Under the pieces are notes generated by a model, which worked only from the letters and a program-made list of their open reading frames with translations, was not told the DNA's origin and made no database searches. This document shows positions 15,020 through 39,115 of a stretch of 64,000 nt of DNA, piece by piece. Made by a program: the position numbers and the translations under genes. Position 1 is the stretch's first letter. Each line of letters opens with the position of its first letter. Source of the stretch: a virus; the IMG/VR virus record IMGVR_UViG_3300035670_010555, positions 32,001-96,000 of that record. One strand, written 5' to 3'.

Positions 15020-15112
15020 GTGTTTTTAATTTTTTTGTTTTTGTTATTTTATTGATAAATATATCCTTTCACAAAAATTTTTCTATTTACTTTTTTTTTG
15101 AAAACGATATTC

Positions 15113-15943: not shown

Positions 15944-15951
15944 TTGGCTTA

Positions 15952-15971
15952 AGGGGGGATTTCACCCCCCT
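15952..15971. terminator. GC-rich hairpin after the sheath gene (terminator or mRNA-stabilising stem)
   Basis: AGGGGGG-ATTTCA-CCCCCCT; only a weak U-tract. Confidence 0.45.
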
Positions 15972-15979
15972 ATTAAATA

Positions 15980-18900
15980 TTAGATATTTTCGAACGAAGC
16001 TCCTGTTGGAGTGATAAAGAATTCGATATCGATGAATTCTAATGCCTTCGTAGGTTTCAAGTATATCTTTCCTGTTAATGTGTTTCTATCTAAATCTTCA
16101 GGTGAAGAAGAAACTGTAACTCTGAAGTCGAATAGACCTCTGTCTCTTCTAATTGAATCTAAGATAGGGTTAACACTGTCCAAGAATTGTTGTCTAACGA
16201 TTTGGTCATTTTGTTCGAACAACAATCTTACTGCTACTGCTGAAATCAACTTACGAGCTTGAAGTAATAATCTTCTTACGTTTAATCTATTAAGTGCAGT
16301 GTCAGCAACTTGTAAAGTTTTGTTACCCCAAATTACAGTTCCTACATCAGAGAAAGTTGCGATAGGGTTGATTCTGCCTTGATAAAGAGTGTCTCTATCT
16401 TCTTGAGTCAACTTAACTCTCGCTTTGATTGAGTTCACAAGACCTCTTGTGTAACCCGCTGAAGCGAACCAAGGGAATGCGATGTTATCTGTCAATGCCA
16501 AGTTTCTACAAACTTCACCTGTAGGTGGAAGATAGATTTGGGTATTATTTACAGTATCTCTTGTAAGAATCCAAGGATAATAAGTCGCAGTATAGTTAGA
16601 ATCGATACCTGTGTTATCCAAGTTGTCAACCGCTTCTTGAGGATAAATAATATCCTGTGGATTTGTTGCATCAGGAGTAAACATTTGGTAATCAGGTGTA
16701 GTTGCAATGTAAACTGAGTCCGCTCTTGAGAATTGTACCATGTCGATAGCTTCTTCTACAAGGTTAGAGTTGTTTACATAATCAATACTTGATGTTGCAA
16801 ATACGTTGATGTTGGTTGATTCAGGGTTAGCGAACGTTAAGATACCAAGTAAGTAAGCGTAGTAGTCGGTGTTTGCGAAATCTTGAGTATTGTTTTGAAC
16901 CACAATTCTCTTGAATAATCCAGTACCAGTTGCGTTTGGATATCTTTGAGACGGAGATGCTCCCGCCAAGAATCCTGTAGCTCCGATTTGGAATCTGTCC
17001 TCATTAGTCCTAAACTCTCTGTAAATGTCCCAACCATCAAAACCACCAGCAAAACATACCGTATATTTTCTTGAGAAGATGAAGTAATACGGATTCTCTT
17101 GAGTTTCAGGATCTCTCGTAAAATCAGCAACCCCACATTCAAATGCAGTTTGTCCACTCGTTAGTGAAGAGTTAGAAATTGTAACTACAGTTGCGCCTGA
17201 GTCCATGTGGAATCCTTTACTCAAGTAGTTCCAAGTTGCTCCTTCAACAGGTAATGGAGAATCTACCCAATTCAAAGGATTTTGTGTACCTTTGTATTGT
17301 AAGAATGAATCATCAATTCCGAATTGACTTGAGAAACCTAAATAACTTCTTCTAACAATATCTCCTGAAGATTCAGTTACATCAGTTGGTGCTCCGAATG
17401 GAGGGTTATAGATAACTTCACCAGGGAAATAATATTTTGTTTTGAAAATTGGAACTGGTGAAGGGTTACTTACTGAAGAGTATTCTCTTTGAGTGTAACC
17501 GTAGAAACCGCAAGGAATCGCATCGATTGGAGCTTCGTCAGCCAACTCAATCATTATGTAACGTGAAATCAAAGCGTATTCTCCATCACTTGAACCGATT
17601 TTCTTAGCAACGAAATTGTTTGAATTAGGATTCATGTTACAGTTAGTAAATTTCTCAATTACCACAGGGTTAGCATCAGTATCGAAGAAATTTCTTACTA
17701 ACACATCGAATGACATATTATTAAACGATAAGTTAGTGATAGAAACTTTTACTTCTGTGTTTGCTGCATTACCATCGGAAATTGATATAAACTTGAATAA
17801 GTTATAAACCTTGTTACCTCTGAGTTCAGACACTAAGAAAGGTGTACTTGGTGACTTATATTGGGTTACATTGTAAGCGATTGATTGTGGGTCTTGACTT
17901 CTAGCTCCTTCAAGTGCAATTAAATTACAATTCAAACCACGAATATATCCTTGGTTATAAGCGTAAGCCAAAGTTCCTGGATAAATTTCTTCAACATATA
18001 CCGGTACTTCATTTCTTGATTTACCAAAGTTATCAACACCTAATACTTTTGTTATGTACTTAGGAGAAGATGCTGACATAGATGTTTCAAAAGAGAAATT
18101 GTCGTTGTCTTTTGTAACACCTGAAATTAAGAATGACTCAAAAGGAGATTGAGTGACTCCTGAGTATTGTTCAGTACATACTAATTGTAAATCAGTTAAA
18201 CCACTAACTTCATAAATTGGTCCGTGGTTATCACTTGTTGTACTATTCGTATATAAAGATATACCTCTTGAACGTAAAGTCGCAACAACCATATTGTTGT
18301 ATTCAGAGTAAGCAGTACCTGAATAGTTATAAACCGTACCTGATATAGTACCTGAAAATGTAGATGATGCTCCTGAAGTTAGAGAAGATACATAATAAAA
18401 GAATGAGTATCCTGAATAAGCATTTCCTGATGTAATATCAAAATTAGCATAATACCATGGGTCATTTTCATCAGAGGACAAGTCATTAGTTGCAAGATTG
18501 ACAGTGTCACAAGCATATTCGTTAATGATGTTTGAATAAGTCGCGGTCAAATCATAAAAATCACTTTCAGGAAGAACTCCATAAACAACCGCAGTATTTG
18601 CGGATAGAGAAGGAGTATCCATGATATTATCAAGATTACTTGTAAAATCTAATCCTAAAGTTGATGTACTACCATCAGATAATCTGTATTGACTGTTAAA
18701 TTTAGCCAAAACTTCAGAAGGTAATGCTCCACCAACAAATTCAACAGTATTTCCTGAAGAAGACCCTGTGAAATCTGCCGACCAAGTAGTTCCTGTTACA
18801 GGACTGAGACCAATAGTTAATGGATCGACATTTGCAGTCACCTTAATACTCCAAGACGGACCAGCGTCATAACCTGATAAACCTAAAATTCTTGTTACGA

Positions 18901-19189: not shown

Positions 19190-19310
19190 AGTTCAAAATT
19201 ATTGTTAGCAAATTTATTTTAATGATAAATATTCATATCTGAGTGAAAAAACTTGACTTTTGAATATCTATTTGTAAGGAGTATGAATTTATTCTACCTT
19301 TTTTCTACCT

Positions 19311-23057: not shown

Positions 23058-24596
23058 ATGAATAAAACAGAAGAAAAGATTCAACAACTCGAATTACAGA
23101 TTGTAGAACAAAAAGTAACCAGAGAAAAAGAGTTGTTAATCACCGAAATGAAAAAAATAGGAATTGAGAAACTACCATATTCCTATTCCGCCCTCAAACA
23201 ATTTATTGACCCCGAAACAATGGATTTCCATTATAACAAACATTACAAGGGGTATGTTGATAAATTAAACGATGCTCTATCCAAGAAAAAATATGGAGAT
23301 TTAGAGTTAGAACAAATAATCAAAACAATAAGCCGATTTGACAAAACAATTAGAAATAATGCAGGTGGAGCATTTAACCACGCATTGTTTTGGAACATGC
23401 TAACACCTGAACCCAAAAGACTCAAAGGGGATTTACAGAAAAAAATTATCAAAGAGTTCGGTAGCTTCATTTTATTTAAGAAAAAGTTCGAAGAAATTGC
23501 CAAAGAAAGATTCGGGTCAGGATGGGTTTGGTTAGTTTTAACTGGTAGAAATACTTTGAAAATTATGTCCACCCCAAACCAAGATAACCCTTTGATGAAT
23601 ATTATTGAAGGTGGTGGATTTCCGTTATTAGGTTTGGATTTATGGGAACATGCATATTATCTCAAGTATAAAAACAAAAGAGACGAATATATTTCTAACT
23701 TTTGGAAAGTGGTGAATTGGGAATTTGTTTCCAAACTTTATGATATGAAAACAGAAACAAAACTTTTGGAATCTGTTGAAATGAAAAAAATTATCAAAGA
23801 ATTCAAGGAACCAAAATTTTGTGATTCAAATGAAATTACTTTTTATAAAGAATTAATCAACAATCCAAAGATAAAAAAATTATACCAAGAAGGTGTTACT
23901 GATGTTTTGAAAAAAGTATTTCATGAATATTGGGTGGAGAGTAATGAGAAAGAAATGTCTGGCTTTTATGGGATTGAATCCGACAGTGCTAGATCAGTTT
24001 TGAATAATTTGAATACCAACTTTAACACTTTTTGTTTATTAACAAAAGCAATCAATAGACAGATAGAATCGATTAACAAACCAAACAAAAAATTCGATTT
24101 TTCCATCAAAGAGAAACGAACAATTAGTGAGGTCAATAGACTTATTGCTGCGTTAGATTATTTCAAAAAAGAAATTTTTACAAAAAACAACGAAGATTTT
24201 GTTAACATTATAAGTGTGTTATTAAAACTTTGGGATAGAGGGCAAAAATCTGAAGACAAAGTTCTTTCTAAAATAGAGCAATATTTCGGTAAAGATTCTT
24301 CAGTTGAAAAGATAGGTGGCCATGGTCAGAAAAGTGACGCATTCAAAGGTATTGATTTGATTGTCAATGTTGGTGGTAAAAAACACACCGCTCAAGTGAA
24401 ACCTTTTTCTTCTATAAAAAAAGAAGGAGATAAAATCACAGTTTTGAATACAGGTAACGTTAAACCATATAACGTAGATTGGATGATATTTATAAACACT
24501 AAGTCTAATAAAATTCTAATTATTGAGAATAATCCGATTGAGAGCCGTGACCAATATGTTTTCAATGTGTCATCTCTAATTCACGAAATAGATTAA
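23058..24596 (+). CDS. sod: Mn/Fe superoxide dismutase fused to a C-terminal PD-(D/E)xK-like domain
   Basis: LPYSYSAL, HYNKH, NNAGGAFNHALFW, FGSGWVWL, PNQDNP, DLWEHAYY; C-terminal GQKSE...DAFKGIDL...AQVKP. Confidence 0.85.
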   Translation: MNKTEEKIQQLELQIVEQKVTREKELLITEMKKIGIEKLPYSYSALKQFIDPETMDFHYNKHYKGYVDKLNDALSKKKYGDLELEQIIKTISRFDKTIRNNAGGAFNHALFWNMLTPEPKRLKGDLQKKIIKEFGSFILFKKKFEEIAKERFGSGWVWLVLTGRNTLKIMSTPNQDNPLMNIIEGGGFPLLGLDLWEHAYYLKYKNKRDEYISNFWKVVNWEFVSKLYDMKTETKLLESVEMKKIIKEFKEPKFCDSNEITFYKELINNPKIKKLYQEGVTDVLKKVFHEYWVESNEKEMSGFYGIESDSARSVLNNLNTNFNTFCLLTKAINRQIESINKPNKKFDFSIKEKRTISEVNRLIAALDYFKKEIFTKNNEDFVNIISVLLKLWDRGQKSEDKVLSKIEQYFGKDSSVEKIGGHGQKSDAFKGIDLIVNVGGKKHTAQVKPFSSIKKEGDKITVLNTGNVKPYNVDWMIFINTKSNKILIIENNPIESRDQYVFNVSSLIHEID

Positions 24597-26082: not shown

Positions 26083-28858
26083 GTTTTTCCTCCCACCCTT
26101 CTTCAGCTAAATCATACATGTAATTAGGACTCAATCCTCTCTTTTCCCAGTATTTGAGTTCTAACTCAGTAATATCTAACACGTCTTCTTGTAATCTATC
26201 TTGGTCACCTTCAGATAATGGGTGTCCATTTATCAATTCACATTGAGACGTTGTGAAGATTCCCCTTTTCTCAGGGTCACTCACAATTAAACCATTTCTC
26301 ACTTCATCTTGAAACACAACCATTAGAGGTTCAATTCGTTTGTTGAATGTTACTATCGCTCTCGGTACATTATAATCACCAGTCAAGGTTGGGTCATTGC
26401 TCAAAATATCTTTGTCTAACATATAACAGTTGACTATAACCCCATCTTTTACTTCAGGGGACTTTGGGTCTTGGAGTTTATTTGCAACATTCAAATCTTT
26501 TAGTTGTTTTACCGTCATCTTTTGAACATCTCCTTGAGAAGCCTTTGTACCATTATTAACATACATGATTACATCACCCAAGTTAACATTCAGTCCTTCT
26601 TGGATTGCAAGTTCCATGTGTGCCATACGAGACATACTATTGCCCGACTTAGTTTTGGTCGTTAATCTTTTCTTGTACTCATCAATAGTTAACTTCACTT
26701 TTGCCCTCTGTGCGATTTTGGAAAGAGGAATTTTTTTGTCATATATTGTCTGAAGATACTCGTAATAGTATTCAACGAACCCTTTCCCGTCCCCTTGTAA
26801 TAACATCTTGATACCTTTATCCAAAAACTCTTCAATATAGATTGGAAGTTTTTTTGACTTGATACTGTTACCCGTGAGTTTAATTTTACCCTTCGCATCC
26901 ATAACCGCATAGTTCTTACGAGCCAAGTTAATACACGATGGCCAAACGCCATCAGTATCCAAAGCCATCTCACCTCTCATGAATATGTCATTATATTCTG
27001 CAACGTCTGCTTCAGGTCCATAATATTCTTTACCCAACTTAACTTTCCAATTCAAACCACGTCCAACATAAACTCTATTCTTAGCATCCTCAGGTGTAGA
27101 AAAGTTCACACCATCAGTATCCATCACCAGTGGAACATATCCTTTGGTCATAAAAAACTTAATCATCTGACGAAGATACTGTCTTCCCGTGCACGTAATT
27201 TGTTCTCCCATATACATGTCACCCCAAGCATAAACCTGAGGAGCCGACAATGCACCGAACATGGAGTTAATAAAGATTTTAATAGGTAATTGTTTGTTAC
27301 CGTAAGACTCAGATTTTTTTCTGTCTGTTTCGTAGTATTGTTCCGCCAAGTTTTTGTATTTGATACGAGTATCTCGGAACCACTTCAACATACCTTTCAT
27401 CGCACCCGTGACATCACAGTCAGGGAATACGTCATGTACCAACTGAATGGAGGGGTATAGAGACGAGAAGTCAAGCTTGAGTACGTCCTTACTATATCCC
27501 ACCTTAAGTAGTCGTGAAAGACCTCCAACGAAGTCAGTCTTAGATTCTTTTGCGGGGATTGCAATGTTATGTTTATAAGACCAAGCCATCATCAACATCT
27601 TCCACAAAGTTGCGGTACCCATAGTAGATACTCTCTCATAGGTAGTTGGAATCATCGCAGCAAGCAAGAATGAACCTTGGTTGAATTCTTGGTCAACTTT
27701 CAAGGTCTCGTCCAAGTCATCGTCAAGATATCGTTCTACCAAGTTGTCTCCTGTTACTTTAAGATAAACATCAGTTCTCTCTTCACAAATCTTGTCTATC
27801 TTGGGGTCTTGTCCAACTTTGCGATAGTTACCATTTTGAGTATTCAACCAAAACTCTTCTTTCTTAGCATAAAACGGACCGATGTCCAAGTGGTCAATAT
27901 AAACTCGGTCAGGTGCCTCAGCGTTAATATATTGTGTAATATACTTCAAACCCGCAGACTTGATACTTGAATTGATTGCTTGTGCTCGTCTTACCGCGTG
28001 AATAATATCAATCACATTGTAACCCCAAATGGAAGTCTGAGTATACAACTCAACTTCGTTCGCAAGTTTCAACATACCCTCTTTTCTTGTGAATGAATGT
28101 TGGGGGTGTAGGGAACGACAAATCTTCTTTGGGTCAATACCCAAGATTTTACATCGTTCAAATATCCAATGCCAGTCAAAGTTTGCTGAGTTATATCCAC
28201 CAATAATACTTGGTTTCAACTCGTCAATAATATTAAAAAATTCTATGATGGCACCTCTTTCTTGAGATTCATCAATACATTCGATAACCTTATGATATCC
28301 TTTGTTGGTTTTGATTCCAATCATGAATATACGACCGTCTTTGGGCTCCAATGCGGTCGTTTCCAAGTCAAATACCAAACGGGTTACTTGATTATAATCT
28401 TCAAATCCTTTGAACAATCTTTTTTCTTTTGAAACAAGATATTGTTCTACCGGAGATAAAATCATTATTTTTTCTTTTGTCTTTTCACCCCACGGATCAC
28501 ACCCTCCTTCTCTGAAAAATTGAATGAGTTCGCGGTATCCTTTCAGAGATTTAACCATAAAGGTCATTCCTCTTTCTAATCTTTCATTGCCGTGTGTGTC
28601 AAGTTTTTCAATCATGATACCATGTTTGGTCATGGCTTCCTTCTGAGCGGCTTTTGAACCACCATAAAAGTTGATGTCTCGTAAATCACCAACCCATGCG
28701 AATGGTGTAAATGTATCCTTACGGATCTCTTTACCCTTACCAGGAATTTCTTTGATTTTGTAGATGGAGTTGGAAGCGTAGTCGAATTCGATTGCGACTA
28801 TAAATTCTTCAGGGTCATTTCCGTGTAGAAACGATTCAATTTCTTTTTCTGTAAACAT
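26069..28858 (-). CDS. polB: Family B DNA polymerase with 3'-5' exonuclease
   Basis: ExoI FDLET, ExoII GYNSANFDW, ExoIII YLDDD; Pol motifs DFSSLYPS, KIFINSMFG, MDTDG, KNY. Confidence 0.95.
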   Translation of the reverse strand: MFTEKEIESFLHGNDPEEFIVAIEFDYASNSIYKIKEIPGKGKEIRKDTFTPFAWVGDLRDINFYGGSKAAQKEAMTKHGIMIEKLDTHGNERLERGMTFMVKSLKGYRELIQFFREGGCDPWGEKTKEKIMILSPVEQYLVSKEKRLFKGFEDYNQVTRLVFDLETTALEPKDGRIFMIGIKTNKGYHKVIECIDESQERGAIIEFFNIIDELKPSIIGGYNSANFDWHWIFERCKILGIDPKKICRSLHPQHSFTRKEGMLKLANEVELYTQTSIWGYNVIDIIHAVRRAQAINSSIKSAGLKYITQYINAEAPDRVYIDHLDIGPFYAKKEEFWLNTQNGNYRKVGQDPKIDKICEERTDVYLKVTGDNLVERYLDDDLDETLKVDQEFNQGSFLLAAMIPTTYERVSTMGTATLWKMLMMAWSYKHNIAIPAKESKTDFVGGLSRLLKVGYSKDVLKLDFSSLYPSIQLVHDVFPDCDVTGAMKGMLKWFRDTRIKYKNLAEQYYETDRKKSESYGNKQLPIKIFINSMFGALSAPQVYAWGDMYMGEQITCTGRQYLRQMIKFFMTKGYVPLVMDTDGVNFSTPEDAKNRVYVGRGLNWKVKLGKEYYGPEADVAEYNDIFMRGEMALDTDGVWPSCINLARKNYAVMDAKGKIKLTGNSIKSKKLPIYIEEFLDKGIKMLLQGDGKGFVEYYYEYLQTIYDKKIPLSKIAQRAKVKLTIDEYKKRLTTKTKSGNSMSRMAHMELAIQEGLNVNLGDVIMYVNNGTKASQGDVQKMTVKQLKDLNVANKLQDPKSPEVKDGVIVNCYMLDKDILSNDPTLTGDYNVPRAIVTFNKRIEPLMVVFQDEVRNGLIVSDPEKRGIFTTSQCELINGHPLSEGDQDRLQEDVLDITELELKYWEKRGLSPNYMYDLAEEGWEEKLMTV

Positions 28859-28862
28859 TGTC

Positions 28863-28924
28863 TATATACGAGTGGTTTATTGGCTTTCACACTAACGTGA
28901 AGTTTACCTTGCTCATCGTATATA
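28863..28924 (-). promoter_or_regulatory. Structured 5' leader of polB (candidate translational operator)
   Basis: Outer stem TATATACGA/TCGTATATA and inner stem TTCAC/GTGAA; ends 4 nt before the ATG. Confidence 0.5.
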
Positions 28925-28961
28925 AATATTAAACAAATTTATAGACTTATCAAATAGCGGG

Positions 28962-29459
28962 TTATAATAAAAGTTTTGGACTATTTTTGTTTTCCTTTGT
29001 CGTCATCAAATAAGAACCATTTTTTGAAAAAGCTGAAGTAATGATTTTATAATTTTTCAAATCATCTGCTAACACAATAAACTCCAAATAGTTCATAAAG
29101 TACGGTAATCCCAAATCATCTCCTACTTCTTTGATTACTGAAATAGTATTATTTGGTCTTACTAAATCTAACTTTGACATTTTATTTTTTATTTTATCAA
29201 AGTCGTCAATAAAAATACTTCCAATTAATTTATTGGGGGCTCCGACTCTTTCAAAAAATTTTGGGTTGTTAGCAAAATTATAATCGTAAATTTCCACAAT
29301 TTCGTCAAGAGATTTATTTCCTTGTCGTTGATTCCATTGATGGTATGTTGCAGACAAATTTATCAAAAATTTATCATGAACAAAACTCACAATAGGTAAC
29401 GACCCATCAGGTTTTACTTGTTCTAAAATTAAATCGGATAATAGTCGGGTTAGTTTCAT
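28962..29459 (-). CDS. Hypothetical protein
   Basis: 165-aa ORF; N-terminal MKLTRLLSDLILE leader. Confidence 0.6.
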   Translation of the reverse strand: MKLTRLLSDLILEQVKPDGSLPIVSFVHDKFLINLSATYHQWNQRQGNKSLDEIVEIYDYNFANNPKFFERVGAPNKLIGSIFIDDFDKIKNKMSKLDLVRPNNTISVIKEVGDDLGLPYFMNYLEFIVLADDLKNYKIITSAFSKNGSYLMTTKENKNSPKLLL

Positions 29460-29462
29460 AAA

Positions 29463-29840
29463 TTAACAACATGCCGTTTCTGATATGAAACTATCTTGAA
29501 TATTTATGTATAATTCTTCCCTAATTGGTAATATTAAATTACCCTCATCATTTCTAATTAAAAATTGCCCTTGATATCTGCCAATCGTATTTGTATCTCT
29601 TGAACTGAACTTGAAATAAATATAATACTCAGGAGCTGCCCCCAAAGGTAGAATTAAATTAACGATTTCACACGGTGCGGAAACAATCTTAGGAATACCT
29701 GTTTCCACATCAATCATAGTAAAAAATATTGTCGAGACCTCAAGGTCTTCCATGAGTTGTTGGTAACCCGCTCTTCCATCCTTTACTACCTGCATTTTTA
29801 ATACAGGGAGAGTTGCGTTCTTTTTAATATAAAATTCCAT
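29463..29840 (-). CDS. BppU-like baseplate/fibre attachment domain protein (start revised to MEFYIKKN)
   Basis: FYIKKNATLPVLKM...IFFTM...YFKFSSRDTNTIGRYQGQF pattern; TATTTAT motif just upstream of the ATG at 29840. Confidence 0.6.
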   Translation of the reverse strand: MEFYIKKNATLPVLKMQVVKDGRAGYQQLMEDLEVSTIFFTMIDVETGIPKIVSAPCEIVNLILPLGAAPEYYIYFKFSSRDTNTIGRYQGQFLIRNDEGNLILPIREELYINIQDSFISETACC

Positions 29841-29856
29841 AACAATAAATATACTG

Positions 29857-31533
29857 TTATGACTCTTTACGAAGCCCCCTATCGTAATGTTCAAATCTAT
29901 CGTGCTCCGTTGGTGTTAATAACAACAATGCGGGATTTAATTCTCCTTTTTTGACAAGTTGATACATGTGTGACATCCACGTTTGTTCAAACGGGTGTGC
30001 CCAAGTTGTGTCTAAGAACATCTTTTGATTCCCTGTTCTACTAACAATTTGAGGCCAATTGCAATAATAGACCTCACCCGCAGCGTATGGAAGTCCTTTG
30101 TGGGACAAGACTTTGTTGAATTGTGTTTTAGGGGCATTTGGGTCTAACCCAATTTCAGGTAGTCGTGGTTTACCCGGCCAAAATTCTGTCCTAACATGTT
30201 GTGGAACATTATACCAAGACCACTGAGTACCGTTATCACCATAAAATTCAGAATAATTAAGTTTCAAGAAATCGAAGTTTTCTTTTTTAATAATCTCCAA
30301 AGACTTACTGTACAGATTTGGAACGTACCTATTAAAACCATTTCTACAAACTTCACCTTCATTTGGATAAAAAAACATATCATCCTCAAAAAATAAATAA
30401 TAGTCCAAATCCGTTTCATTTTGAAAGTGCTCGGCAATCCATTGTCTTCCCCCACATATTCCCAAATTATCTTTTTTAATATGTTCAAATCCAAATTCTT
30501 CACAAATCTCAGAATATTCTGAGGTAGTTGTCAAATCACTTGAATTATCTAGTAAAAATTTACTTGTTTTATTAAGGTAATCTTTATCGTAAGCCAACAT
30601 CGAATCAATCAAGGTCATAAATTGGTTTGGGCTATTGAATGTGATAACATACAAACCGACTTTGTTTGTATCCAAATTATTTACAACTTGTACTGAACTT
30701 TCATTTTTGGATTTCAAGTTATCATTTTTTAAGTCCTCAAAGAATTTACCAACAAGTCCATTCCCTTCAATTTCAAAGTAATTGAAAAGGTCAGAATGTT
30801 TATAACACATGATACTGAATATAGATTCTTCAGTACCCATGTATCCTTCCTCTAAAGTACTTTTTAACAATCCATAATAAATTCCATTAACATCACCAAT
30901 TGTGTGTTTAGGACCTCCAAAAAAACCACCTCTTGCAACTTTTGTCACTTTATTGCCGGCAATATAATTTAACTTATTATATTCAAATCCATGAATTTCC
31001 CTCTCCGCTCCGTATGGAAAACAAATAAATGAAAATTTGGAAATGTATTTAGATAAGTTATTAAGAACTTTATCATGAGTGAAATAACCTGGATGTACTG
31101 TATTAGTTAATCCACCATCAATCCAAAACATATACTCCGAGTTGAACTGGTCCATAATTTTAGCATCATGTAACAAAAACATTTTGGACATTACTAATGG
31201 ATTGTAGTTTTCTAAACGACCTTGTGTCGATTCTTTTAACCACCCAACTTGGTCATACCACTCAGAACTTGTTCTAATTTTTTGAATTAAAGGAAAAAAC
31301 TCTGAATTGGTAAACCAGCTAAGTGGTCGCACAATAAATTGTGTGTTTTCGGTATTACGTCTTTCAAAAACGAAAGATTTCAGATCTTCGTCTCCAAATA
31401 TAATAAGGTTTTCTTCAACCTTTAATAACTGGTCGAATTTATCCAAATAATGCTGGTAGGATCTACTCCATCCTTCGGTTAATTCTCCTCGACCGATGTC
31501 CCAAATACCTGTAACTAAAGTTATATTACTCAT
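29857..31533 (-). CDS. HtrL/YibB-like domain fused to a GT-A (GT2-like) glycosyltransferase domain
   Basis: TLVTGIWDIGR..RSYQHYLDKF, FWIDGG, GGFFGG, GTEESI; C-terminal YVITFN...NLGICGGR...FFEDD. Confidence 0.65.
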   Translation of the reverse strand: MSNITLVTGIWDIGRGELTEGWSRSYQHYLDKFDQLLKVEENLIIFGDEDLKSFVFERRNTENTQFIVRPLSWFTNSEFFPLIQKIRTSSEWYDQVGWLKESTQGRLENYNPLVMSKMFLLHDAKIMDQFNSEYMFWIDGGLTNTVHPGYFTHDKVLNNLSKYISKFSFICFPYGAEREIHGFEYNKLNYIAGNKVTKVARGGFFGGPKHTIGDVNGIYYGLLKSTLEEGYMGTEESIFSIMCYKHSDLFNYFEIEGNGLVGKFFEDLKNDNLKSKNESSVQVVNNLDTNKVGLYVITFNSPNQFMTLIDSMLAYDKDYLNKTSKFLLDNSSDLTTTSEYSEICEEFGFEHIKKDNLGICGGRQWIAEHFQNETDLDYYLFFEDDMFFYPNEGEVCRNGFNRYVPNLYSKSLEIIKKENFDFLKLNYSEFYGDNGTQWSWYNVPQHVRTEFWPGKPRLPEIGLDPNAPKTQFNKVLSHKGLPYAAGEVYYCNWPQIVSRTGNQKMFLDTTWAHPFEQTWMSHMYQLVKKGELNPALLLLTPTEHDRFEHYDRGLRKES

Positions 31534-32407
31534 ATATTCTGTTAAATTCTTCTAAGATTTTATAAAAACTTTTATTTTGTTGGAACAATTCTTCGGAAGT
31601 TCCCCTTGGAGCGTTATCTCTACACCACCAAATATCAAAATGTTTTCGTTCAAAAAGTTCTTTATGGTTATAATACATTAGAGTCATTACAGTTTCTTCA
31701 TGAGGTATACCCTTATCTTCAGGTATAATTTTACTAATATAATTTTCGAACAAAGTGACAACTTCATCCCACTTGCTCTTATGTCCCCCAAACAAACCAC
31801 CAATTATATGTAACCCTCTATCGTATTCTTTGTACCACTTTCTATCAACGGTTCCCGACCAAAAATTTCTATCATTTTCCTTTCCGATAATGATAAATTT
31901 ATCTTTCGTGTCTTCAATTAAATTTTTTAAGAACTCGTTATTGAATAATGAACTTTCATAGTATCTTCTAACAAGACCGTCATGAGTTAAATATTTTAAG
32001 GGTATTAACCCACAATGGGACAAGCCGGCATCAATCCAATAGTAATAATCATATGATTTATCTTCATTCCACCACCAGTGGAATTTGGAGTATTGTATTT
32101 CGATGCACCTATCAGACTTTTTAGATTCTTCAATATTTTTATATTGATTTATCAAATCCTTAAATTTAGTTTGAGAAATATCAAAAATCTGAAATTTTAA
32201 TTTTTCGGGGGATATTTGATTTTCTTCATAAAAAAATTTTTGTAGTGACTCTATTTCTCGATTTGAGGTATAACACAAAAAATCGGCATCAGTCATTTTG
32301 AGTAATGACAATAGACTAAACCTGTAGTGTCCTCCCCTATTAATTCTTCCACCATATTCGGTACCATAAAGGTCACTATATATTGAAGTTATAAATTTAA
32401 CTTTCAT
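31526..32407 (-). CDS. HtrL/YibB-like putative glycosyltransferase
   Basis: YSKF, YYWIDAG, IIGGLFGG, HEETVM; paralogous to the N-terminal half of the next gene. Confidence 0.55.
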   Translation of the reverse strand: MKVKFITSIYSDLYGTEYGGRINRGGHYRFSLLSLLKMTDADFLCYTSNREIESLQKFFYEENQISPEKLKFQIFDISQTKFKDLINQYKNIEESKKSDRCIEIQYSKFHWWWNEDKSYDYYYWIDAGLSHCGLIPLKYLTHDGLVRRYYESSLFNNEFLKNLIEDTKDKFIIIGKENDRNFWSGTVDRKWYKEYDRGLHIIGGLFGGHKSKWDEVVTLFENYISKIIPEDKGIPHEETVMTLMYYNHKELFERKHFDIWWCRDNAPRGTSEELFQQNKSFYKILEEFNRIYE

Positions 32408-33143
32408 AGTAAAATTTGCGATGTTCGTTTTTATCTTTTATTTCCTGTACTTGAAACTGGTCCATAAACTCGTGGGGTATTTTTATTGGGGTCCATCGAT
32501 TCCAATTATAAGTTTGCATATACCAATTGTTATATACTCCTTCAGAAATATTTGAATAATTTGTTTTCTGAGGTGCAATTGGTAGTATGGGACAATAACT
32601 CTGATACTTGTCAACTATAAATTTGTAGGTATAGTCATCTAAAGCAAAAAAGTATTCTCCACTATTTGTAAACGCGGTCAATGCTATGTCAAATATTTTG
32701 TCGTAAATTGATTCGTCGTAAATTACCATGTTTGCACCATAAATCCCTCTAGCTTCAGGAGGAGCTTCAGGTGTGTTTGTCATGTCAAATAGGATATCAT
32801 AATCCTTACTCACATTGATTGGTCTATTTTGTGTTGGGGACAAATTGAACATGGCAAACTCCAAGTTCGGACATGATTCTTCGATTTTAGTTAACAAATC
32901 TTTTGCATAAGGCATAAATCCGCAATCATCCTCAATCATCATTACTCTTGGGTATTTCTTTTCCTTAGCAATTTTAATAATCTCAAAAGTGGATTTGGTA
33001 ATGCCCATATATGAGTTTGTGTCTATTGCCGAAAACCTTTCAAAGTCCCACCCAATATATTCCATTTCCTTGGTTATAGATTCCATCCTATCTGGTCTCC
33101 TATCCAAGTTTATTACAAACTTTGGTATTTCTGAAAAGTTCAT
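32397..33143 (-). CDS. GT25-like glycosyltransferase
   Basis: VINLDRRPDR, FERFSAID, MIEDD. Confidence 0.75.
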   Translation of the reverse strand: MNFSEIPKFVINLDRRPDRMESITKEMEYIGWDFERFSAIDTNSYMGITKSTFEIIKIAKEKKYPRVMMIEDDCGFMPYAKDLLTKIEESCPNLEFAMFNLSPTQNRPINVSKDYDILFDMTNTPEAPPEARGIYGANMVIYDESIYDKIFDIALTAFTNSGEYFFALDDYTYKFIVDKYQSYCPILPIAPQKTNYSNISEGVYNNWYMQTYNWNRWTPIKIPHEFMDQFQVQEIKDKNEHRKFYYES

Positions 33144-34405
33144 TAACTAACGTGATTGTGGTTTAGTTGCCCTGTTAATCTATCACACCAACCTTTGGAC
33201 ACCGAGTGAGGCCACACAACCCAATGTGTTGGTAATACTGTTGTTGGGAATTCTCTCCACACCTTACAATATTTGTCAGGGTCTCTAAAAAAACCGGCAA
33301 TTTCATTCTTGTCCGCATCTCTTCTATAAATGGTTTCATCGTTTGGACCGTGGAATGCGACCACCCAAAAATCGTAATCCTTTTCAGGAACGCTTGAATA
33401 CCCAATATCAATACAATGTTTATAAATGGTTGAAAAACTTTTTTTCCATTCTTCTTCATCTTCAATAACAGGACTTGGCGCGTATTTTTTATCCAAACAA
33501 TGTTGGTCAACCGCTCTTTTTTCAAATAATAAACCAGCGTATCTTTCGTAATCCCGTAATGTTCTCACAGTTCCGAATCCGTAAGGACCATCATGACCTT
33601 CTTGAGTTTCACCATCCATACCAAATAATTTTCTATTTGTTAGGTGAGATTTTTTATTTTTTTCACCCCACGTTTTATCGTCATCCCATTGTTTGGTTCT
33701 GCCTTTACGAGTGTATTCGTGATACACAACAGGAATGTGTGGGTGGAACAAATCGTAACCCCAAGTATATGCTCTCGCGGCAATTGAAATTTCTTCTCCG
33801 TGAAAATAGTATTCAGGATTGTGTTGTACTTCAGTTGAGAATTGTCCGAGTGTGAAACAGAAGTGAGCTGAATAGAATCTTGCGGTAACAGGTTTTGTCA
33901 TCTCTTTCCATCCTGGTATTGTTTCAGGTAAAAAGAATACCGCTCCTTCAGGAATAAATCTATCAAAAGCCATTCTCCAAGCGTCTTGTGCACGACCTGC
34001 AGGGTCATTTTCAGGATCGAATGAAGGAACATAACCTGTCAACAAAGGTTTCTTATATCCATCCTTTTGTAATCCTTTAATCATTTTGATTAATACATCA
34101 TCCCAATCTTTGATGAATCTCATATGAGAATCAATTTGAAGTGTGTATGTTTCACCATCATATAGTTGTTGAGTTAAATTTCTTGCCCAACAAACTCCTT
34201 TAGATTCTTGATATGGAATGTCCAATATTTTGAATCGTTTATCTTTTCTAAACTCATCTAAATTATCGAATCCATCTGATTCACTGTATTGTCTCGCAAT
34301 TCCGAAAACCAAGTTATTCGGTTTTTTTGCATTTGAAATCATGTCTTTTAATGTCGGAACCAACTGTGGATCTCTGTAGGAAGCAATTTGAATAAAAATT
34401 TTCAT
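33143..34405 (-). CDS. GT60-family polypeptide alpha-GlcNAc transferase (Gnt1/Gnt2-like)
   Basis: IFIQIASYRDP, SKGVCWAR, LQIDSHMRF (DSH motif), FHGEEISIAARAYTWGYD, VYHEY. Confidence 0.8.
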   Translation of the reverse strand: MKIFIQIASYRDPQLVPTLKDMISNAKKPNNLVFGIARQYSESDGFDNLDEFRKDKRFKILDIPYQESKGVCWARNLTQQLYDGETYTLQIDSHMRFIKDWDDVLIKMIKGLQKDGYKKPLLTGYVPSFDPENDPAGRAQDAWRMAFDRFIPEGAVFFLPETIPGWKEMTKPVTARFYSAHFCFTLGQFSTEVQHNPEYYFHGEEISIAARAYTWGYDLFHPHIPVVYHEYTRKGRTKQWDDDKTWGEKNKKSHLTNRKLFGMDGETQEGHDGPYGFGTVRTLRDYERYAGLLFEKRAVDQHCLDKKYAPSPVIEDEEEWKKSFSTIYKHCIDIGYSSVPEKDYDFWVVAFHGPNDETIYRRDADKNEIAGFFRDPDKYCKVWREFPTTVLPTHWVVWPHSVSKGWCDRLTGQLNHNHVS

Positions 34406-34430
34406 TTGAAATATATTTTATCCTAAAAGT

Positions 34431-34461
34431 AAAAAACCCTCCGACAAAGTGGAGGGTTTTT
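34431..34461. terminator. Bidirectional intrinsic terminator
   Basis: AAAAAACCCTCC-GACAAAGT-GGAGGGTTTTT. Confidence 0.75.
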
Positions 34462-34486
34462 GAATATATATTAATGTTTTTTATTT

Positions 34487-35320
34487 TTAAGATGAAGATG
34501 GTGTAGGTGTCATAGTAGGAGTTTCGGTTGGAGTACTTGTTGCTGTCTCACTTGGTGTGTTGGTTGGAGTTTCAGTTGGAGTCTCGGTAGGAGTTTCACT
34601 TGGAGTTCCTGAAGGTGTATTGGTAGGAGTCTCGGTAGGAGTTTCACTTGGAGTTCCTGAAGGTGTATTGGTAGGAGTTTCGGTTGGAGTCTCGGTAGGA
34701 GTTTCACTTGGAGTATTAGTAGGAGTTTCGGTTGGAGTCTCGGTAGGAGTTTCACTTGGAGTTCCTGAAGGTGTATTGGTAGGAGTTTCGGTAGGTGTAC
34801 TTGTTGGAGTTTCTGTAGGAGTATTAGTAGGAGTCTCGCTAGGAGTATTTGTTGGAGTTTCTGTAGGAGTACTTGTTGGAGTTTCGCTAGGAGTATTCGT
34901 TGGAGTTTCAGTTGGAGTTGGACTCGGTGTTTCTGTTGCGGTCACGCTCGGAGTTGGGGTCGATGTTTCAGTATTAGTTGGAGTCGGTGTAGGTGTTCCA
35001 GTTTCTGTTGCAGTCACGCTCGGAGTTGGAGTATTTGTAGGGGTTTCAGTTGGTGTCATTGTTGGAGATGGCGTCAGCGTTGGAGATGGTGTTGGTGTGT
35101 TAGTTGCAGAAATTGGAGGAAACGCACCTTCATCTACAAATGAAACTGCAGATTTGAATGCCGATGCAATTGTATAGGTCCCATCGATAACCCAAATATT
35201 TTTCGTTTGATTAGGTAATAATTCAACTTGATAATCCCAAAAAGAATCATCACATCTTCGATAACTAAAGTTTACTACAGTTGAACCTGTATTTGTAAGA
35301 ATGTATTTACTGCAAGCCAT
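34487..35320 (-). CDS. Mucin-like protein: small Cys-containing N-terminal domain plus ~200 aa of TP(T/S)(E/N) repeats
   Basis: [14 protein letters not shown]...RRCDD domain followed by [12 protein letters not shown] repeats. Confidence 0.85.
34560..34920. repeat. Coding tandem repeat with a 12-bp base unit and 48-bp higher-order copies
   Basis: ggagtctcggtaggagtttcacttggagttcctgaaggtgtattggta at 34578 and 34626, with a further copy near 34734. Confidence 0.85.
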
Positions 35321-35346
35321 ATATTTTTATATTTTTTTTCGCTAAA

Positions 35347-35559
35347 TTATACTGGAGGAAAAACTCCGTCGTTAATCAAAGATATTGATGGCTTGAATAA
35401 TGGTGCCACAGTATACGTCCCGTCAGTTACCCAAATATTTTTTACTTGGTTTGGGGATAGCTGGATTTGATAGTCCCACATCGAATCGTCACATCTTCTA
35501 TAACTAAAATTTACTGATGTTGATCCTGTATTTGTAAGTGTATATTTACTACATGCCAT
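35347..35559 (-). CDS. Stand-alone paralog of the MACSKY domain (70 aa)
   Basis: Highly similar to the N-terminus of 34487-35320; has its own upstream TATTTAT motif. Confidence 0.75.
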   Translation of the reverse strand: MACSKYTLTNTGSTSVNFSYRRCDDSMWDYQIQLSPNQVKNIWVTDGTYTVAPLFKPSISLINDGVFPPV

Positions 35560-35622
35560 CGTTTATCTCATTTAATTTATAAATACAGCAAACAGTAGTA
35601 TTTTCCATTTTTTTTCCAAAAA

Positions 35623-35931
35623 TTATGAAGGTGTCACTGTTGGTGTCAACGTATTGGTCGGGGTTATAGTTGGTGTTGGCGTTTCTGTTGACGATGGGGT
35701 ATTTGTTGGGGTTATAGTTGGTGTTGGCGTTGGTCCTGAAATGACAAGAGAATACGTTGTACCATATGTTGGAACATAACAATTGTAAGTACCCAAATAG
35801 TAATCTGATAGATATTCGAATGGAAATACTTGAGTACCTAAATCAATAGTACCTCCAGATTCTGGCAAATACGTTACATTGGTTGTTAGACCACTCAAAT
35901 TATTACTTAATATTCTTACTCCAATTACCAT
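35623..35931 (-). CDS. Small beta-domain protein with a Thr/Pro tail
   Basis: C-terminal PTPTPTITPTNTPSSTETPTPTITPT. Confidence 0.7.
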   Translation of the reverse strand: MVIGVRILSNNLSGLTTNVTYLPESGGTIDLGTQVFPFEYLSDYYLGTYNCYVPTYGTTYSLVISGPTPTPTITPTNTPSSTETPTPTITPTNTLTPTVTPS

Positions 35932-35942
35932 ATCTATATATA

Positions 35943-36509
35943 TTAACAGATACCTTTGTTTATTATCAAAGTTCCACTTAATTGTACGAAAATTGCTCCA
36001 TCAGAAATTGTGAATTTATTACCTGCTGGTGGTATGGTCAATGCCCTATTACCGTAAACATGGTCCCCAACTTCTAAAGTGTTGAACGGTTTTGTTGTAA
36101 AGACCTTAACATTCGCAGGATTTGCAATCATATTAACGGACTCACAAACGTTTTGATACCAACCTCCACCTCTTAGATTTCTTTCATATATAGGAGAAGG
36201 AGTCACGGACGGTGTTGGAGTTTCTGTTGGAGTAGGAGTTTGTGTCATTGGTGTTGGTGTAACACTTACCGTTGGAGTGACTGTTGGAGTTACTGTAGGT
36301 GTCGGAGTTGTGCTTGGGCATAATCCAGTATTTATAATATCCAAAGGGCCACTGTAACTTTCTTGAGCCAAATATTCGGCACAAACAAACTCTGTGGAAA
36401 GTGGTGATATTGAAGATACACTAATTATACCCGTACACCCTGTCCATATATAAAACCCATTTTGGGTACTATTATAGTTAGTTATTCGATATTGGTTACA
36501 AGTACTCAT
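35943..36509 (-). CDS. Two Cys-containing domains joined by a Thr/Pro linker
   Basis: MSTCNQYRITN...WTGC domain (loosely like MACSKY), PT linker, C-terminal domain ending KGIC. Confidence 0.7.
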   Translation of the reverse strand: MSTCNQYRITNYNSTQNGFYIWTGCTGIISVSSISPLSTEFVCAEYLAQESYSGPLDIINTGLCPSTTPTPTVTPTVTPTVSVTPTPMTQTPTPTETPTPSVTPSPIYERNLRGGGWYQNVCESVNMIANPANVKVFTTKPFNTLEVGDHVYGNRALTIPPAGNKFTISDGAIFVQLSGTLIINKGIC

Positions 36510-36532
36510 ATTTTAACAGTCCATGTTTTGAT

Positions 36533-39079
36533 TTAGTTTGTTGGTGTAACTGTAGGAGTGATAGTTGGTGTTGGTGTCGGAATAACAGGTAAAATTAAAT
36601 CGACAGGACAAATACAACCAATTAAATTATAGGAAAAAACGTCAAACGCAACTACAATTTCTCCAGGTAATAAAACTGGAGATAAATCAAATTGGTGTTG
36701 ATGTTGTTCTACGTTTATAGTTTCTTCCCCATAGAAAACAGTTCCTAATGAACCGTAAGCCGCTCCCGAAATGATATAATCACAGTTAGCAATCGCTGGT
36801 GACGTAAAATCAGGAAGATTCCATAATACCAATTTGAATTTTGTGGACTCCGTCAGTTCTACCTGTAAATATTGTGTTGTGATAGGACACGTTGGTGTTT
36901 GTGTTGGTGTCCCAGTAGGTGTATTCGTCGGTGTTTCAGTCGGTGTAACTGTCGGAGTAACTGTTGAAGTTTCTGTAGTTGTCGGAGTCGGTGTTTCAGT
37001 CGGTGTAACTGTCGGAGTAACTGTTGAAGTTTCTGTAGTTGTCGGTGTCGGTGTTTCAGTCGGTGTAACTGTCGGAGTAACTGTTGAAGTTTCTGTAGTT
37101 GTCGGTGTCGGTGTTTCAGTCGGTGTAACTGTCGGAGTTTCTGTAGTTGTCGGTGTTGGTGTTACGGTTGGAGTAGGCGATGGTTCAATTAACTCATAAG
37201 TTAAATCATTGCTTGGAACAACAATAGTACAATTAGGACACTCAGGATTCAACAATGTATACTTGTCTTTCAAAATTCTAAAATTGTGTTTGACCTGCGA
37301 AGCGTTTAATGGTTCAACATACATTCTGAACGAGCTTATGTCACCAATCATACTACCACCGAAATATTCTTCTAACTTAATATGTGTGGTTAATCCTGAA
37401 TAAATTGTATTATCTAAATCATGAGTTGTTAAACATTCAGGGTCTTGCTGGTAAGTGATACCACTAATAGATTCAGGACACCCTCCTGAAAATGTCAAGT
37501 TATCTTTAAGACCTTGAGTTCCTCCACCTAACGAAATATTATATCCAACACCAATTTGTTTTTCTCTTTCAACATTCAACAATCTTGGGATAATTTCTTC
37601 AAAGTTTTCTGCAACCATGAACAATTTACCATTAACAAAAATTTTGAGAGTACCCAATCTGTATATTTGTTCCTCAGTCCAATTGTCGTTGAAAGTTACA
37701 ATTTCTGTTGTTGCAGGATCGTATGGTAATTCATGAGTTAGTGGAGGTTCAATCAAGCTAACACTATTGTTTGCTGGTGTTGCAGTATATATCGTGTCAA
37801 CAAGAAGTCCTAACCCACCCTTCTCATAAAGGTCACAAGTGTCGAGCCATTGATTTCTTTGGAATACGGCATCGATTTGAACCCAGTGTTCTACATTTAT
37901 ATACGGTGTATTTTTACACTCATCGAAAATACCTCTTGTTGAACACCATTCTGTAACTGAAGTTCCTGTTTGATATGTTAACCCTGTAAGACAAGTTCCA
38001 CTTGTTTCACAGCCACCAGTAATCCTATATGTTTTTATACAAACTCTCGGATTTCCTGTATCACCACTTAACCTTATTGATAATCCATTGGAAACGCCAT
38101 CATATAATGGATCTTTCTCAGGATATTGGGCATTTACCTCACATTCACAATTACATCCACATGAACAATTTTTTGATGTCCCCCCTGAAATCTGATAAAC
38201 TTGAAGACAAGTTGATGCGGTATTAGCAGAACTAGCACATCCACAAGTATGCATACAAGTTAAACCTGAAGTTACTCTTGTATATCCAGTATCTTGTTTT
38301 GGTTCTCCATCCGCATAATGGTAAAATTTGTTTTCAGCCCGAGAACCCATATAAAAGAATGTTCCTTTATTATCAGGGTATCGATTGTTAAGACCAACAC
38401 TTGTATCTCCCGTCCATCGGTATCTCAACATAAATTCTGCAGTCCAACCTAATGGTACTCTTTGTGGGAAAATCTGATAGTCGTATCCAGGTATTTTATA
38501 AAATCCTTGGAAAAATCCTCCATCTAATCTTGCAAAATATCCGACAGGACCTCCATCAGTCGCGTAATTCAAATCATAACTGTATGAATTATCGTTCCAT
38601 AATCTAGTTTGTGTTGTTGTAAACCCTGTAATAGGGTGGAGTTTCATTCTCCTATCGTATTTGTATCTACTATATTTGTCGGTGTTGTTTGTGTAAAGTC
38701 CTGTTGTTATTTGGATTGTCTCTCCTGACATTTTTTTAACCAAACCATTATCAATACCAGTTAAACCTACATCACACAAGTCGGTAACCTTTGGACAAAA
38801 GTTAGGATCTATGTCGTCAGGATTCCAATAATTTTCAGAAACAATTACATCATTATCAAAAGTACATACCCCTGATTGACATATCGTCGTACCTGTACTA
38901 TTGAAATCAAATTTGAATGGCATTCTATTTCCATCGTCCTCACCTATTAATAAAGGTGAAAAAATTACTTCTTGGTCATAGTCCTTCTCATCCGAAGCCA
39001 AACAGATATCGGTAATTTCATTGACAGGTTTAATCCCCCAACGTCTAAAATTGTACTGATTAATATTTTGATATGCCAT
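36533..39079 (-). CDS. Cys-rich protein with LamG/ConA-like elements and Thr/Pro repeats (putative virion appendage)
   Basis: GWTAEFML, LKIFVNGKL, FGGSMIGDISSFRMYVEPLNASQVKHNF; CSCGCNCEC; PT repeats. Confidence 0.65.
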   Translation of the reverse strand: MAYQNINQYNFRRWGIKPVNEITDICLASDEKDYDQEVIFSPLLIGEDDGNRMPFKFDFNSTGTTICQSGVCTFDNDVIVSENYWNPDDIDPNFCPKVTDLCDVGLTGIDNGLVKKMSGETIQITTGLYTNNTDKYSRYKYDRRMKLHPITGFTTTQTRLWNDNSYSYDLNYATDGGPVGYFARLDGGFFQGFYKIPGYDYQIFPQRVPLGWTAEFMLRYRWTGDTSVGLNNRYPDNKGTFFYMGSRAENKFYHYADGEPKQDTGYTRVTSGLTCMHTCGCASSANTASTCLQVYQISGGTSKNCSCGCNCECEVNAQYPEKDPLYDGVSNGLSIRLSGDTGNPRVCIKTYRITGGCETSGTCLTGLTYQTGTSVTEWCSTRGIFDECKNTPYINVEHWVQIDAVFQRNQWLDTCDLYEKGGLGLLVDTIYTATPANNSVSLIEPPLTHELPYDPATTEIVTFNDNWTEEQIYRLGTLKIFVNGKLFMVAENFEEIIPRLLNVEREKQIGVGYNISLGGGTQGLKDNLTFSGGCPESISGITYQQDPECLTTHDLDNTIYSGLTTHIKLEEYFGGSMIGDISSFRMYVEPLNASQVKHNFRILKDKYTLLNPECPNCTIVVPSNDLTYELIEPSPTPTVTPTPTTTETPTVTPTETPTPTTTETSTVTPTVTPTETPTPTTTETSTVTPTVTPTETPTPTTTETSTVTPTVTPTETPTNTPTGTPTQTPTCPITTQYLQVELTESTKFKLVLWNLPDFTSPAIANCDYIISGAAYGSLGTVFYGEETINVEQHQHQFDLSPVLLPGEIVVAFDVFSYNLIGCICPVDLILPVIPTPTPTITPTVTPTN
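36927..37138. repeat. Near-perfect 60-bp coding tandem repeat, ~3.5 copies
   Basis: Consecutive 60-nt lines are identical except one base; unit encodes TPTVTPTETPTPTTTETSTV. Confidence 0.95.
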
Positions 39080-39088
39080 AAACTAATG

Positions 39089-39115
39089 ATAAATACCTTA
39101 TGTCATAGTATTTAT
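39089..39115. promoter_or_regulatory. Back-to-back TATTTAT motifs (divergent putative late promoters)
   Basis: GTATTTAT on each strand, each oriented toward its divergent gene (39079 minus, 39132 plus). Confidence 0.55.

Follow-up and report, generated by a model that had tools for sequence, protein, structure and literature searches.

A candidate phage-encoded system for mucin-type protein O-glycosylation in an uncultured jumbo myophage

Can a bacteriophage make mucin-like glycoproteins of its own, with the acceptor proteins and the enzyme that starts their glycosylation encoded side by side? This question is raised by positions 29463-39079 of a 64-kb stretch of viral DNA (hereafter the window; bases 32001-96000 of the 169,854-bp IMG/VR viral contig IMGVR_UViG_3300035670_010555, GC content ~33%), where minus-strand genes for proteins with long Thr-Pro (PT) tracts lie upstream of a gene for a glycosyltransferase of family GT60. 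Mucin-type O-glycosylation by GT60 and GT27 enzymes is regarded as a eukaryotic trait, and we know of no bacterial or phage GT60 enzyme that has been characterised so far. A previous inspection of the letters by themselves (the sequence-only reading) had proposed that the locus encodes both the substrates and the writers of such a system. Our analysis confirms the observation and supports the interpretation in part: we put the probability that the phage encodes a cytoplasmic mucin-type protein O-glycosylation system at roughly 60%.

The window encodes a tail sheath protein, a T4-type baseplate protein and a family-B DNA polymerase, and complete relatives have genomes of 317-326 kb; the source is therefore an uncultured jumbo myophage, of which the contig represents 56% (completeness estimated with CheckV). 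No close cultured phage was found, as megablast of the region returned no matches in cultured phages. The habitat of the phage group is freshwater, including lakes, and the closest bacterial matches to its GT60 enzyme (60-70% identity), in metagenome-assembled genomes of Saprospiraceae, Lewinellaceae and Cytophagaceae, hint at a Bacteroidota host.

A GT60 enzyme and its candidate acceptors

The gene at 33143-34405 (minus strand) encodes a 420-amino-acid (aa) protein made up of a GT-A catalytic domain and, at approximately residues 325-413, a C-terminal beta domain. Its assignment to GT60 by the sequence-only reading is borne out by a match to PF11397 (E = 3.9e-68; 230.9 bits against a cut-off of 21; profile positions 2-44 and 95-351), outside which the C-terminal beta domain falls, by a match to phrog_24687 (E = 3.5e-164) and by the IASYRD and DSH motifs. 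In an alignment of 38 homologues with 35-51% identity, residues D92, H94, E204, E205, R211 and H229 are invariant; D92-x-H94 and the distal H229 are metal-site residues, as in GT27 enzymes. The AlphaFold2 (AF2) model has a predicted local distance difference test (pLDDT) score of 95.5, and its top 43 PDB matches in Foldseek are all GT27 polypeptide N-acetylgalactosaminyltransferases (GalNAc-transferases; best E = 3.5e-10; 278 aligned columns at a root-mean-square deviation of 3.9 Å). A sequence search of the same protein against PDB chains gave no match.

Characterised GT60 enzymes all act on polypeptides; they comprise Gnt1, which modifies a hydroxyproline of Skp1, and protist polypeptide alpha-N-acetylglucosaminyltransferases (alpha-GlcNAc-transferases) that initiate mucin-type glycans (PMC6939170, PMC8724618). 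Family, fold and conserved residues make the phage protein a candidate initiating polypeptide N-acetylhexosamine (HexNAc) transferase. A complex prediction with residues 60-130 of the 277-aa PT protein described below and Mn scored 0.00, a result that counts neither for nor against binding. GT60 proteins are numerous, forming more than 7,000 clusters at 90% identity, and many representatives of 50%-identity clusters (P0122, P0123, P0125, P0132 and others) are 1,000-2,460 aa long and contain two to four GT60-like stretches each.

Upstream of the enzyme gene, the minus strand carries five genes (34487-39079) whose products contain small beta modules or a LamG-type domain; four of the five proteins have PT tracts. 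The sequence-only reading had described five co-oriented small-domain proteins; the open reading frames (ORFs) and the strand are as described, and one of the five, the 848-aa protein, instead has a 628-aa LamG-type region. The four long TPT/TPS tracts of up to ~200 aa that it had reported are present, and measure 210, 108 plus 19, 49 and 42 residues in the respective proteins (428 in total). They contain 181 Thr, 106 Pro (25%) and 36 Ser, with Thr at every second position, and 172 of the 217 Thr and Ser residues are flanked by Pro, a setting for Thr that suits mucin-type initiating enzymes. The window has no other PT-tract ORFs, and the whole 170-kb contig has six; with four of six in one block, the clustering is not due to chance. 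The other two, at contig positions 118261-119505 and 167243-168325 (both minus strand), encode 415 and 361 aa, and neither has a Pfam domain.

The longest uninterrupted tract belongs to the 277-aa protein (34487-35320, minus strand), in which a 67-aa module precedes a 210-aa (T-P-[TS]-x)n tract (residues 68-277) that includes 86 Thr and 23 Ser; in the DNA, its repeats have periods of 24, 48 and 108 nt (71-81% matches). The 848-aa protein (36533-39079, minus strand) combines its LamG/ConA-type N-terminal region with a 93-aa beta module and tracts at residues 629-736 and 830-848. An Atlas lead connects the N-terminal region to ConA-like/Laminin_G_3 domains, and a homologue in the related locus L011 has three Laminin_G_3 domains (E = 5.5e-38). 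Proteins of this type head the PT block in all 17 architectures listed, and the N-domain family is present in 40 loci. The 848-aa protein is a candidate for the main acceptor and for an adhesin.

The remaining proteins are smaller. In the 188-aa protein (35943-36509, minus strand), a 59-aa Cys-containing beta module is joined by a 49-aa PT linker (residues 60-108) to an 80-aa beta module. Its Cys residues at positions 4, 25, 43, 64, 122 and 188 are conserved in an alignment of 18 homologues; the AF2 model (pLDDT 73) shows two beta modules connected by a disordered linker, and Foldseek found no PDB match for this two-module protein at E <= 0.001. The 102-aa protein (35623-35931, minus strand) consists of a 60-aa module, the family of which (family 3) is present in 40 related loci, and a 42-aa C-terminal tract (residues 61-102). 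The 70-aa protein (35347-35559, minus strand) is a stand-alone module without a PT tract and a paralogue of the N-domain of the 277-aa protein; this module family (family 1) has 106 copies in related loci. The 70-aa gene might have been a remnant split from the 102-aa gene by a frameshift, a possibility that we rejected given its own start, an upstream TATTTAT box and its retention as a separate gene in relatives (L004 and L011).

The PT proteins of relatives resemble beads on a string, built from few module families (the small modules have 60-90 aa and conserved Cys pairs) and from PT linkers of 20-130 residues. Module number and linker length vary greatly among phages whose GT60 enzymes are 85-95% identical. 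As the sequence-only reading had noted for the acceptors, no signal peptide was found, nor any membrane segment, in the PT and enzyme proteins; the components are soluble.

Gene linkage in phages and bacteria

Co-occurrence of GT60 and PT genes in relatives had been put forward by the sequence-only reading as a check, and it is borne out among close relatives in both search directions, in a second phage clade and in ~11 bacterial lineages, one sub-clade excepted (below). Among 329 viral contigs with GT60 relatives, we fetched 80 loci (83-96% identical). Wherever a fetched locus includes more than 600 bp of flank upstream of GT60, PT-tract ORFs directly precede the enzyme gene on the same strand. 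In the reverse search, which started from the N-domain of the 848-aa protein, GT60 was found 1.9-8.4 kb downstream in 57 of the 59 loci with enough flank; in one of the two exceptions it lies ~21 kb away on the same contig. A related-locus search with protein P0172 found nothing.

The second phage clade (L084-L121) has GT60 enzymes that are ~44% identical to that of the window, with two GT60 paralogs and a homologue of the 558-aa partner enzyme described below. The paralogs, ~46-53% and 40-43% identical to the window enzyme, are arranged in tandem or split by giant TPS-repeat proteins. One sub-clade encodes (TPS[IV][ST]x)n proteins, with tracts of several hundred to more than 1,000 residues, upstream of or between the GT60 paralogs; in L103, for example, such proteins span 5683-9947 and have a GT60 gene on either side, at 4429-5676 and 10022-11269. 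They have no similarity to the modules of the window, and one ends in an Lcl_C domain. The linkage of PT-rich proteins to GT60 is conserved and has evolved repeatedly. In the cultured Xanthomonas jumbo phage XacN1, GT60 (ORF334) is accompanied by homologues of the 293-aa and 558-aa partner proteins, and the giant ORF325 carries a short PT tract ~9 kb from GT60.

Scanning one bacterial genome per species with the profile yielded 573 loci, of which the best 80 were examined with a strict PT-tract filter that excludes off-frame artefacts; a looser Thr/Ser/Pro filter gave many off-frame false matches in high-GC bacteria. The density of PT-tract ORFs was 1.00 per 10 kb within 1 kb of GT60, 0.19 at 1-2.5 kb, 0.49 at 2.5-5 kb and 0.07 at 5-10 kb, and was thus ~14-fold higher in the nearest kilobase than at 5-10 kb. 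The nearest 12% of the flank held 15 of the 39 bacterial PT ORFs (binomial p = 2e-5) and, after collapsing to ~11 lineages, 11 of 30 (p = 4e-4). These lineages span Bacteroidota, Gemmatimonadota, Planctomycetota, Verrucomicrobiota, Acidobacteriota, Actinomycetota and Proteobacteria.

Some bacterial GT60 neighbours have a twin-arginine-type signal followed by a PT/TSP tract (L131, 8507-9688; L134, 8000-9769; L189, 11479-12240; L195, 8424-9998; L203, 11491-12126; all in metagenome-assembled genomes), and two Bacteroidota examples also have a C-terminal domain like those of the type IX secretion system (T9SS). Glycosylation in the cytoplasm ahead of folded-protein export would fit such neighbours. 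Gemmatimonas neighbours in L138 and L141 appear by eye to have a PqqD-like N-terminal domain ahead of the PT tract. Genes 1-4 kb from GT60 in the Burkholderiales genera Ralstonia, Achromobacter and Paraburkholderia encode (TP)n-tract proteins of 780-954 aa (L187, 12270-15131; L170, L173, L194, L197 and L204, ~15050-17670). The GT60 homologue of these genomes is shorter, matching residues 2-324 only, and the L187 protein (Ralstonia) appears by eye to be a VgrG-type spike of the type VI secretion system.

Neighbouring genes, mechanism and rival explanations

Three candidate elongating enzymes are encoded downstream of GT60 on the minus strand. The 248-aa protein at 32397-33143, read earlier as a GT25 enzyme, does exceed the Pfam cut-off for PF01755 (E = 2.7e-7; 31.1 bits against 24), with residues 7-47 covering profile positions 3-43, only 41 of 199; it also matches a glucosyltransferase family (phrog_2835, E = 4.5e-6) and has no NCBIfam match. 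It is a candidate elongating transferase, and addition of beta-Gal by it would be an analogy with GT25 enzymes. Two HtrL/YibB-like proteins had also been proposed. One is a 558-aa two-domain enzyme (29857-31533), in which an HtrL_YibB N-terminal half (PF09612, E = 4.1e-22; 79.5 bits against 24.1; residues 3-257 on profile positions 2-256 of 267) precedes a GT-A-like half with an FFEDDM motif. Because its score against TIGR02192 (E = 1.3e-22, 80.7 bits) is below the equivalog cut-off of 264.9, we regard it as a member of the HtrL/YibB family and not as an orthologue of Escherichia coli YibB. The other, a 293-aa protein at 31526-32407, has no Pfam match and is a distant relative, a weak paralogue of the HtrL half of the 558-aa protein (BLASTP E = 8e-6).

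The XacN1 homologue of the 293-aa protein is 29% identical to it, and XacN1 ORF330 is 41% identical to the 558-aa protein. The pair formed by GT60 and the 558-aa enzyme is kept in XacN1, in most second-clade phage loci and in 29 of the 80 bacterial loci, where many of the pairs are directly adjacent. Between the enzyme genes and the DNA polymerase lies a small gene (29463-29894, minus strand) whose product, probably starting at codon 19, would have 125 aa. The earlier label of a BppU-like protein is not supported: no match to BppU_N (PF10651) was found in Pfam at E up to 0.1, nor in PHROG or NCBIfam. The label is a lead from the Atlas, in which the entry also begins at residue 19 and BppU_N occurs on 10% of the members of one look-alike cluster.

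On the other side of the PT genes, a tightly packed run of soluble genes extends over ~21 kb (41778-63301, plus strand). Its Pfam assignments include transferases (GT1/4, GT2 plus GT4, GT2, GT11 and GT10 fucosyltransferase-like, and further GT2), sugar enzymes (UDP-glucose dehydrogenase, GDP-mannose 4,6-dehydratase, DegT aminotransferase, zinc-dependent alcohol dehydrogenase and an epimerase) and other modifiers (two FkbM methyltransferases, a hexapeptide acyltransferase and DUF6165). Scattered among these are genes for a polB-type exonuclease, a dUTPase-like protein and PhoH. None of the 42 ORFs at 28962-63689 has a membrane segment at a plausible site, judged by 19-residue hydrophobicity windows, which makes a lipid-linked polysaccharide pathway unlikely; nor was any Pfam family for the priming transferase, flippase or polymerase of such pathways (Wzx/Wzy or ABC) found in the region.

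A promoter-like box, TATTTATCAT, lies at 39086-39095 (minus strand), 6 nt upstream of the start of the 848-aa gene, and its only other site in the window precedes the tail-sheath gene at 19222. Of the 31 gene starts listed, 14 have the shorter TATTTAT on the sense strand within the ~70 nt that precede them. This box is found ahead of structural genes (tail sheath and baseplate region) and also the gene for a superoxide dismutase (SOD) fusion and the gene after it. Because TATTTAT precedes non-structural genes as well, we give little weight to the 10-mer, which is a weak sign that PT genes and tail sheath might be co-regulated. The SOD-fusion gene (23058-24596, plus strand) encodes 512 aa, of which the first ~226 form a complete Fe/Mn superoxide dismutase (E = 3e-39), followed by ~290 unassigned residues.

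Which residues are modified and with what sugar, in which order the enzymes act, whether the products belong to the virion and what role they play is inferred here as follows. The soluble GT60 enzyme, with its D92-x-H94...H229 metal site, would add the first HexNAc to Thr or Ser of the (T-P-[TS]-x)n tracts encoded upstream, and the GT25-like, 293-aa HtrL-like and 558-aa two-domain proteins would build the glycan up further. The neighbouring 21-kb operon may provide unusual nucleotide sugars and further, elongating transferases to the same pathway. The products would be stiff, protease-resistant 'bottle-brush' spacers that bear LamG-type and small Cys-containing beta modules, and these spacer proteins would probably be adhesin-like appendages or be released at lysis.

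Several observations weigh against this mechanism. The strongest intrinsic terminator of the region, an 11-bp stem followed by a T run (34432-34461, minus strand), lies between the last PT gene and GT60 and is kept in 69 of 72 relatives with compensatory stem changes, so that the PT genes and the enzyme genes form separate predicted transcription units, not one operon, and the single cassette of the sequence-only reading has to be given up. The close relatives are one lineage, and their perfect synteny counts as about one evolutionary event. Within the second clade, a sub-clade (L084-L102, L112 and L113) has no PT gene within 10 kb of GT60, and in G004, a complete genome of this sub-clade, PT tracts lie ~70 kb from the enzyme gene. 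Enzyme-substrate fusions offer no Rosetta-stone support, as 1 of 150 diverse GT60 representatives carries a PT tract. As for a virion role, tblastn of the 848-aa N-domain against cultured phages gave no match; the PT proteins are putative virion components, and the glycan on their tracts is a predicted one.

PT tracts are, moreover, common as plain linkers in secreted and phage proteins. Those of the window could be unmodified flexible linkers in a hypervariable adhesin locus, with the GT60 cassette glycosylating some other protein (capsid or tail proteins, a Gly-Thr-Ser fibre or host proteins, for instance) and adjacency reflecting inherited gene order only. The separate transcription units, the sub-clade without nearby PT genes and the general spread of PT linkers agree with this explanation, as does the position of the cassette near the DNA polymerase both in the window and in XacN1. 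It accounts poorly for the non-homologous PT/TPS proteins that adjoin GT60 in the second phage clade, some of them between two paralogs, and the 14-fold, distance-dependent enrichment in ~11 bacterial lineages is hard to explain by inherited synteny. We therefore regard plain linkers as unlikely, if still plausible.

The tracts might also be acceptors by way of hydroxyproline, Thr and Ser staying unmodified, if a phage 2-oxoglutarate (2OG)-Fe(II) oxygenase acted first. Gnt1, one of the characterised GT60 enzymes, is specific for hydroxyproline in this way on Skp1 (PMC6939170). A quarter of the tract residues are Pro, and the complete relatives G001 (312344-321891) and G002 (28772-29065, 152970-153233 and 162023-162214) each encode three 2OG-FeII_Oxy_3 proteins of the prolyl-hydroxylase type (PF13640). 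Neither this contig, which is 56% complete, nor the complete genome G004, which also bears GT60, yielded a member of that family; none lies near the cassette, and second-clade tracts are richer in Ser and Thr than in Pro. Aquatic phages commonly carry such oxygenases for unrelated reasons, and we consider this route improbable. More improbable still is a non-protein target, either phage DNA bases (as for T4-like glucosyltransferases) or a host surface polysaccharide or lipopolysaccharide (LPS). The nearby DNA polymerase, the dUTPase/dCTP-deaminase-like gene within the sugar operon, weak PHROG matches to hydroxymethylcytosine glucosyltransferases and the place of HtrL/YibB in the E. coli LPS-core cluster could all be read in its favour. 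Against it, the contig has a single gene of the thymidylate-synthase family, which scores as a true ThyA (TIGR03284, 321 bits; cut-off 108), and therefore this 56%-complete contig gives no sign of a hydroxymethyl-base pathway; two complete relatives have one gene of that family each. The lack of membrane proteins and of lipid-linked pathway components among the 42 ORFs argues in the same direction, and the nearest structures to GT60 are polypeptide transferases, not DNA or LPS enzymes.

Should mucin-type O-glycosylation of the PT tracts prove true, a very abundant group of lake jumbo phages would make its own mucin-like glycoproteins, devoting ~30 kb of genome to glycosylation if the 21-kb operon, with its presumed link to the cassette, is counted. 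The acceptor proteins would be the fastest-changing part of the locus, with a new view of phage surfaces, adhesion and resistance to proteases and grazing, and bacteria would have soluble enzymes for mucin-type glycans. The cultured XacN1, which has the same enzyme cassette, makes a bench test feasible. We found no relevant publication on phage GT60, PF11397 or mucin-like phage O-glycosylation; a moraphage paper treats phage glycosyltransferases in general terms (PMC12619734). More tentatively, GT60 and its two-domain HtrL/GT-A partner may form a module, widespread in prokaryotes and phages, by which Thr-Pro tracts receive mucin-type O-glycans in the cytoplasm, acting in phages on hypervariable lectin-bearing appendage proteins and in bacteria on surface proteins exported by the twin-arginine pathway or T9SS, perhaps also on VgrG spikes. 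The mucin-type glycosylation of eukaryotes by GT60 and GT27 enzymes could have its prokaryotic root in such a module, and its origin would become testable.

Comparison with known systems

The protist GT60 alpha-GlcNAc-transferases are related to the phage enzyme through the same PF11397 family, GT-A fold and DxH metal site. Like Dictyostelium Gnt1, the phage enzyme is predicted to be soluble and cytoplasmic, and its candidate acceptors, like those of the mucin-type initiators of Dictyostelium and Trypanosoma cruzi, are Thr/Pro-rich repeats. In the Gnt1 pathway, Gnt1 is followed by the two-domain PgtA, to which the pairing of the phage GT60 with the two-domain 558-aa enzyme may be likened by analogy only. 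The phage system differs in belonging to a virus of prokaryotes, in the extra C-terminal beta domain of the enzyme and in having HtrL/YibB-like partners rather than GT2/GT74 enzymes.

Animal GT27 GalNAc-transferases provide the nearest solved structures and have the D-x-H and distal His metal site in common with the phage enzyme; they act on Thr/Pro-rich tandem repeats, for which the phage tracts are the candidate counterparts. In contrast to them, the phage enzyme has no ricin-type lectin domain, membrane anchor or Golgi context, and it has no sequence match in the PDB.

The serine-rich-repeat adhesins of Gram-positive bacteria are initiated with O-HexNAc in the cytoplasm by GtfA/GtfB, and processed by elongating glycosyltransferases, before export. 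Their long Ser/Thr-repeat adhesin, encoded beside its transferases, has candidate counterparts in the PT proteins of the phage locus, and the twin-arginine PT neighbours of bacterial GT60 genes suggest, by analogy, a similar order of events. The adhesin systems differ in their GT-B initiating enzyme, in repeats that are Ser-rich rather than Thr-Pro and in accessory Sec export. Giant viruses, in the fibrils of Mimivirus and the capsids of chloroviruses, rely on host-independent soluble glycosyltransferases and nucleotide-sugar enzymes, and their aminotransferase, acetyltransferase, methyltransferases and dehydratases resemble the content of the 21-kb phage operon. They are, however, viruses of eukaryotes that use other transferase families, without Thr-Pro repeat acceptors beside a GT60.

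Among phages, mycobacteriophage glycosyltransferases reportedly O-glycosylate the phage's own proteins in the host cytoplasm, according to work attributed to Freeman et al. in 2023. As that account has it, the glycans are placed on the C-termini of capsid and tail-tube subunits, whereas the locus described here encodes dedicated candidate acceptors, with tracts of 40-210 residues in this phage and of more than 1,000 in relatives.

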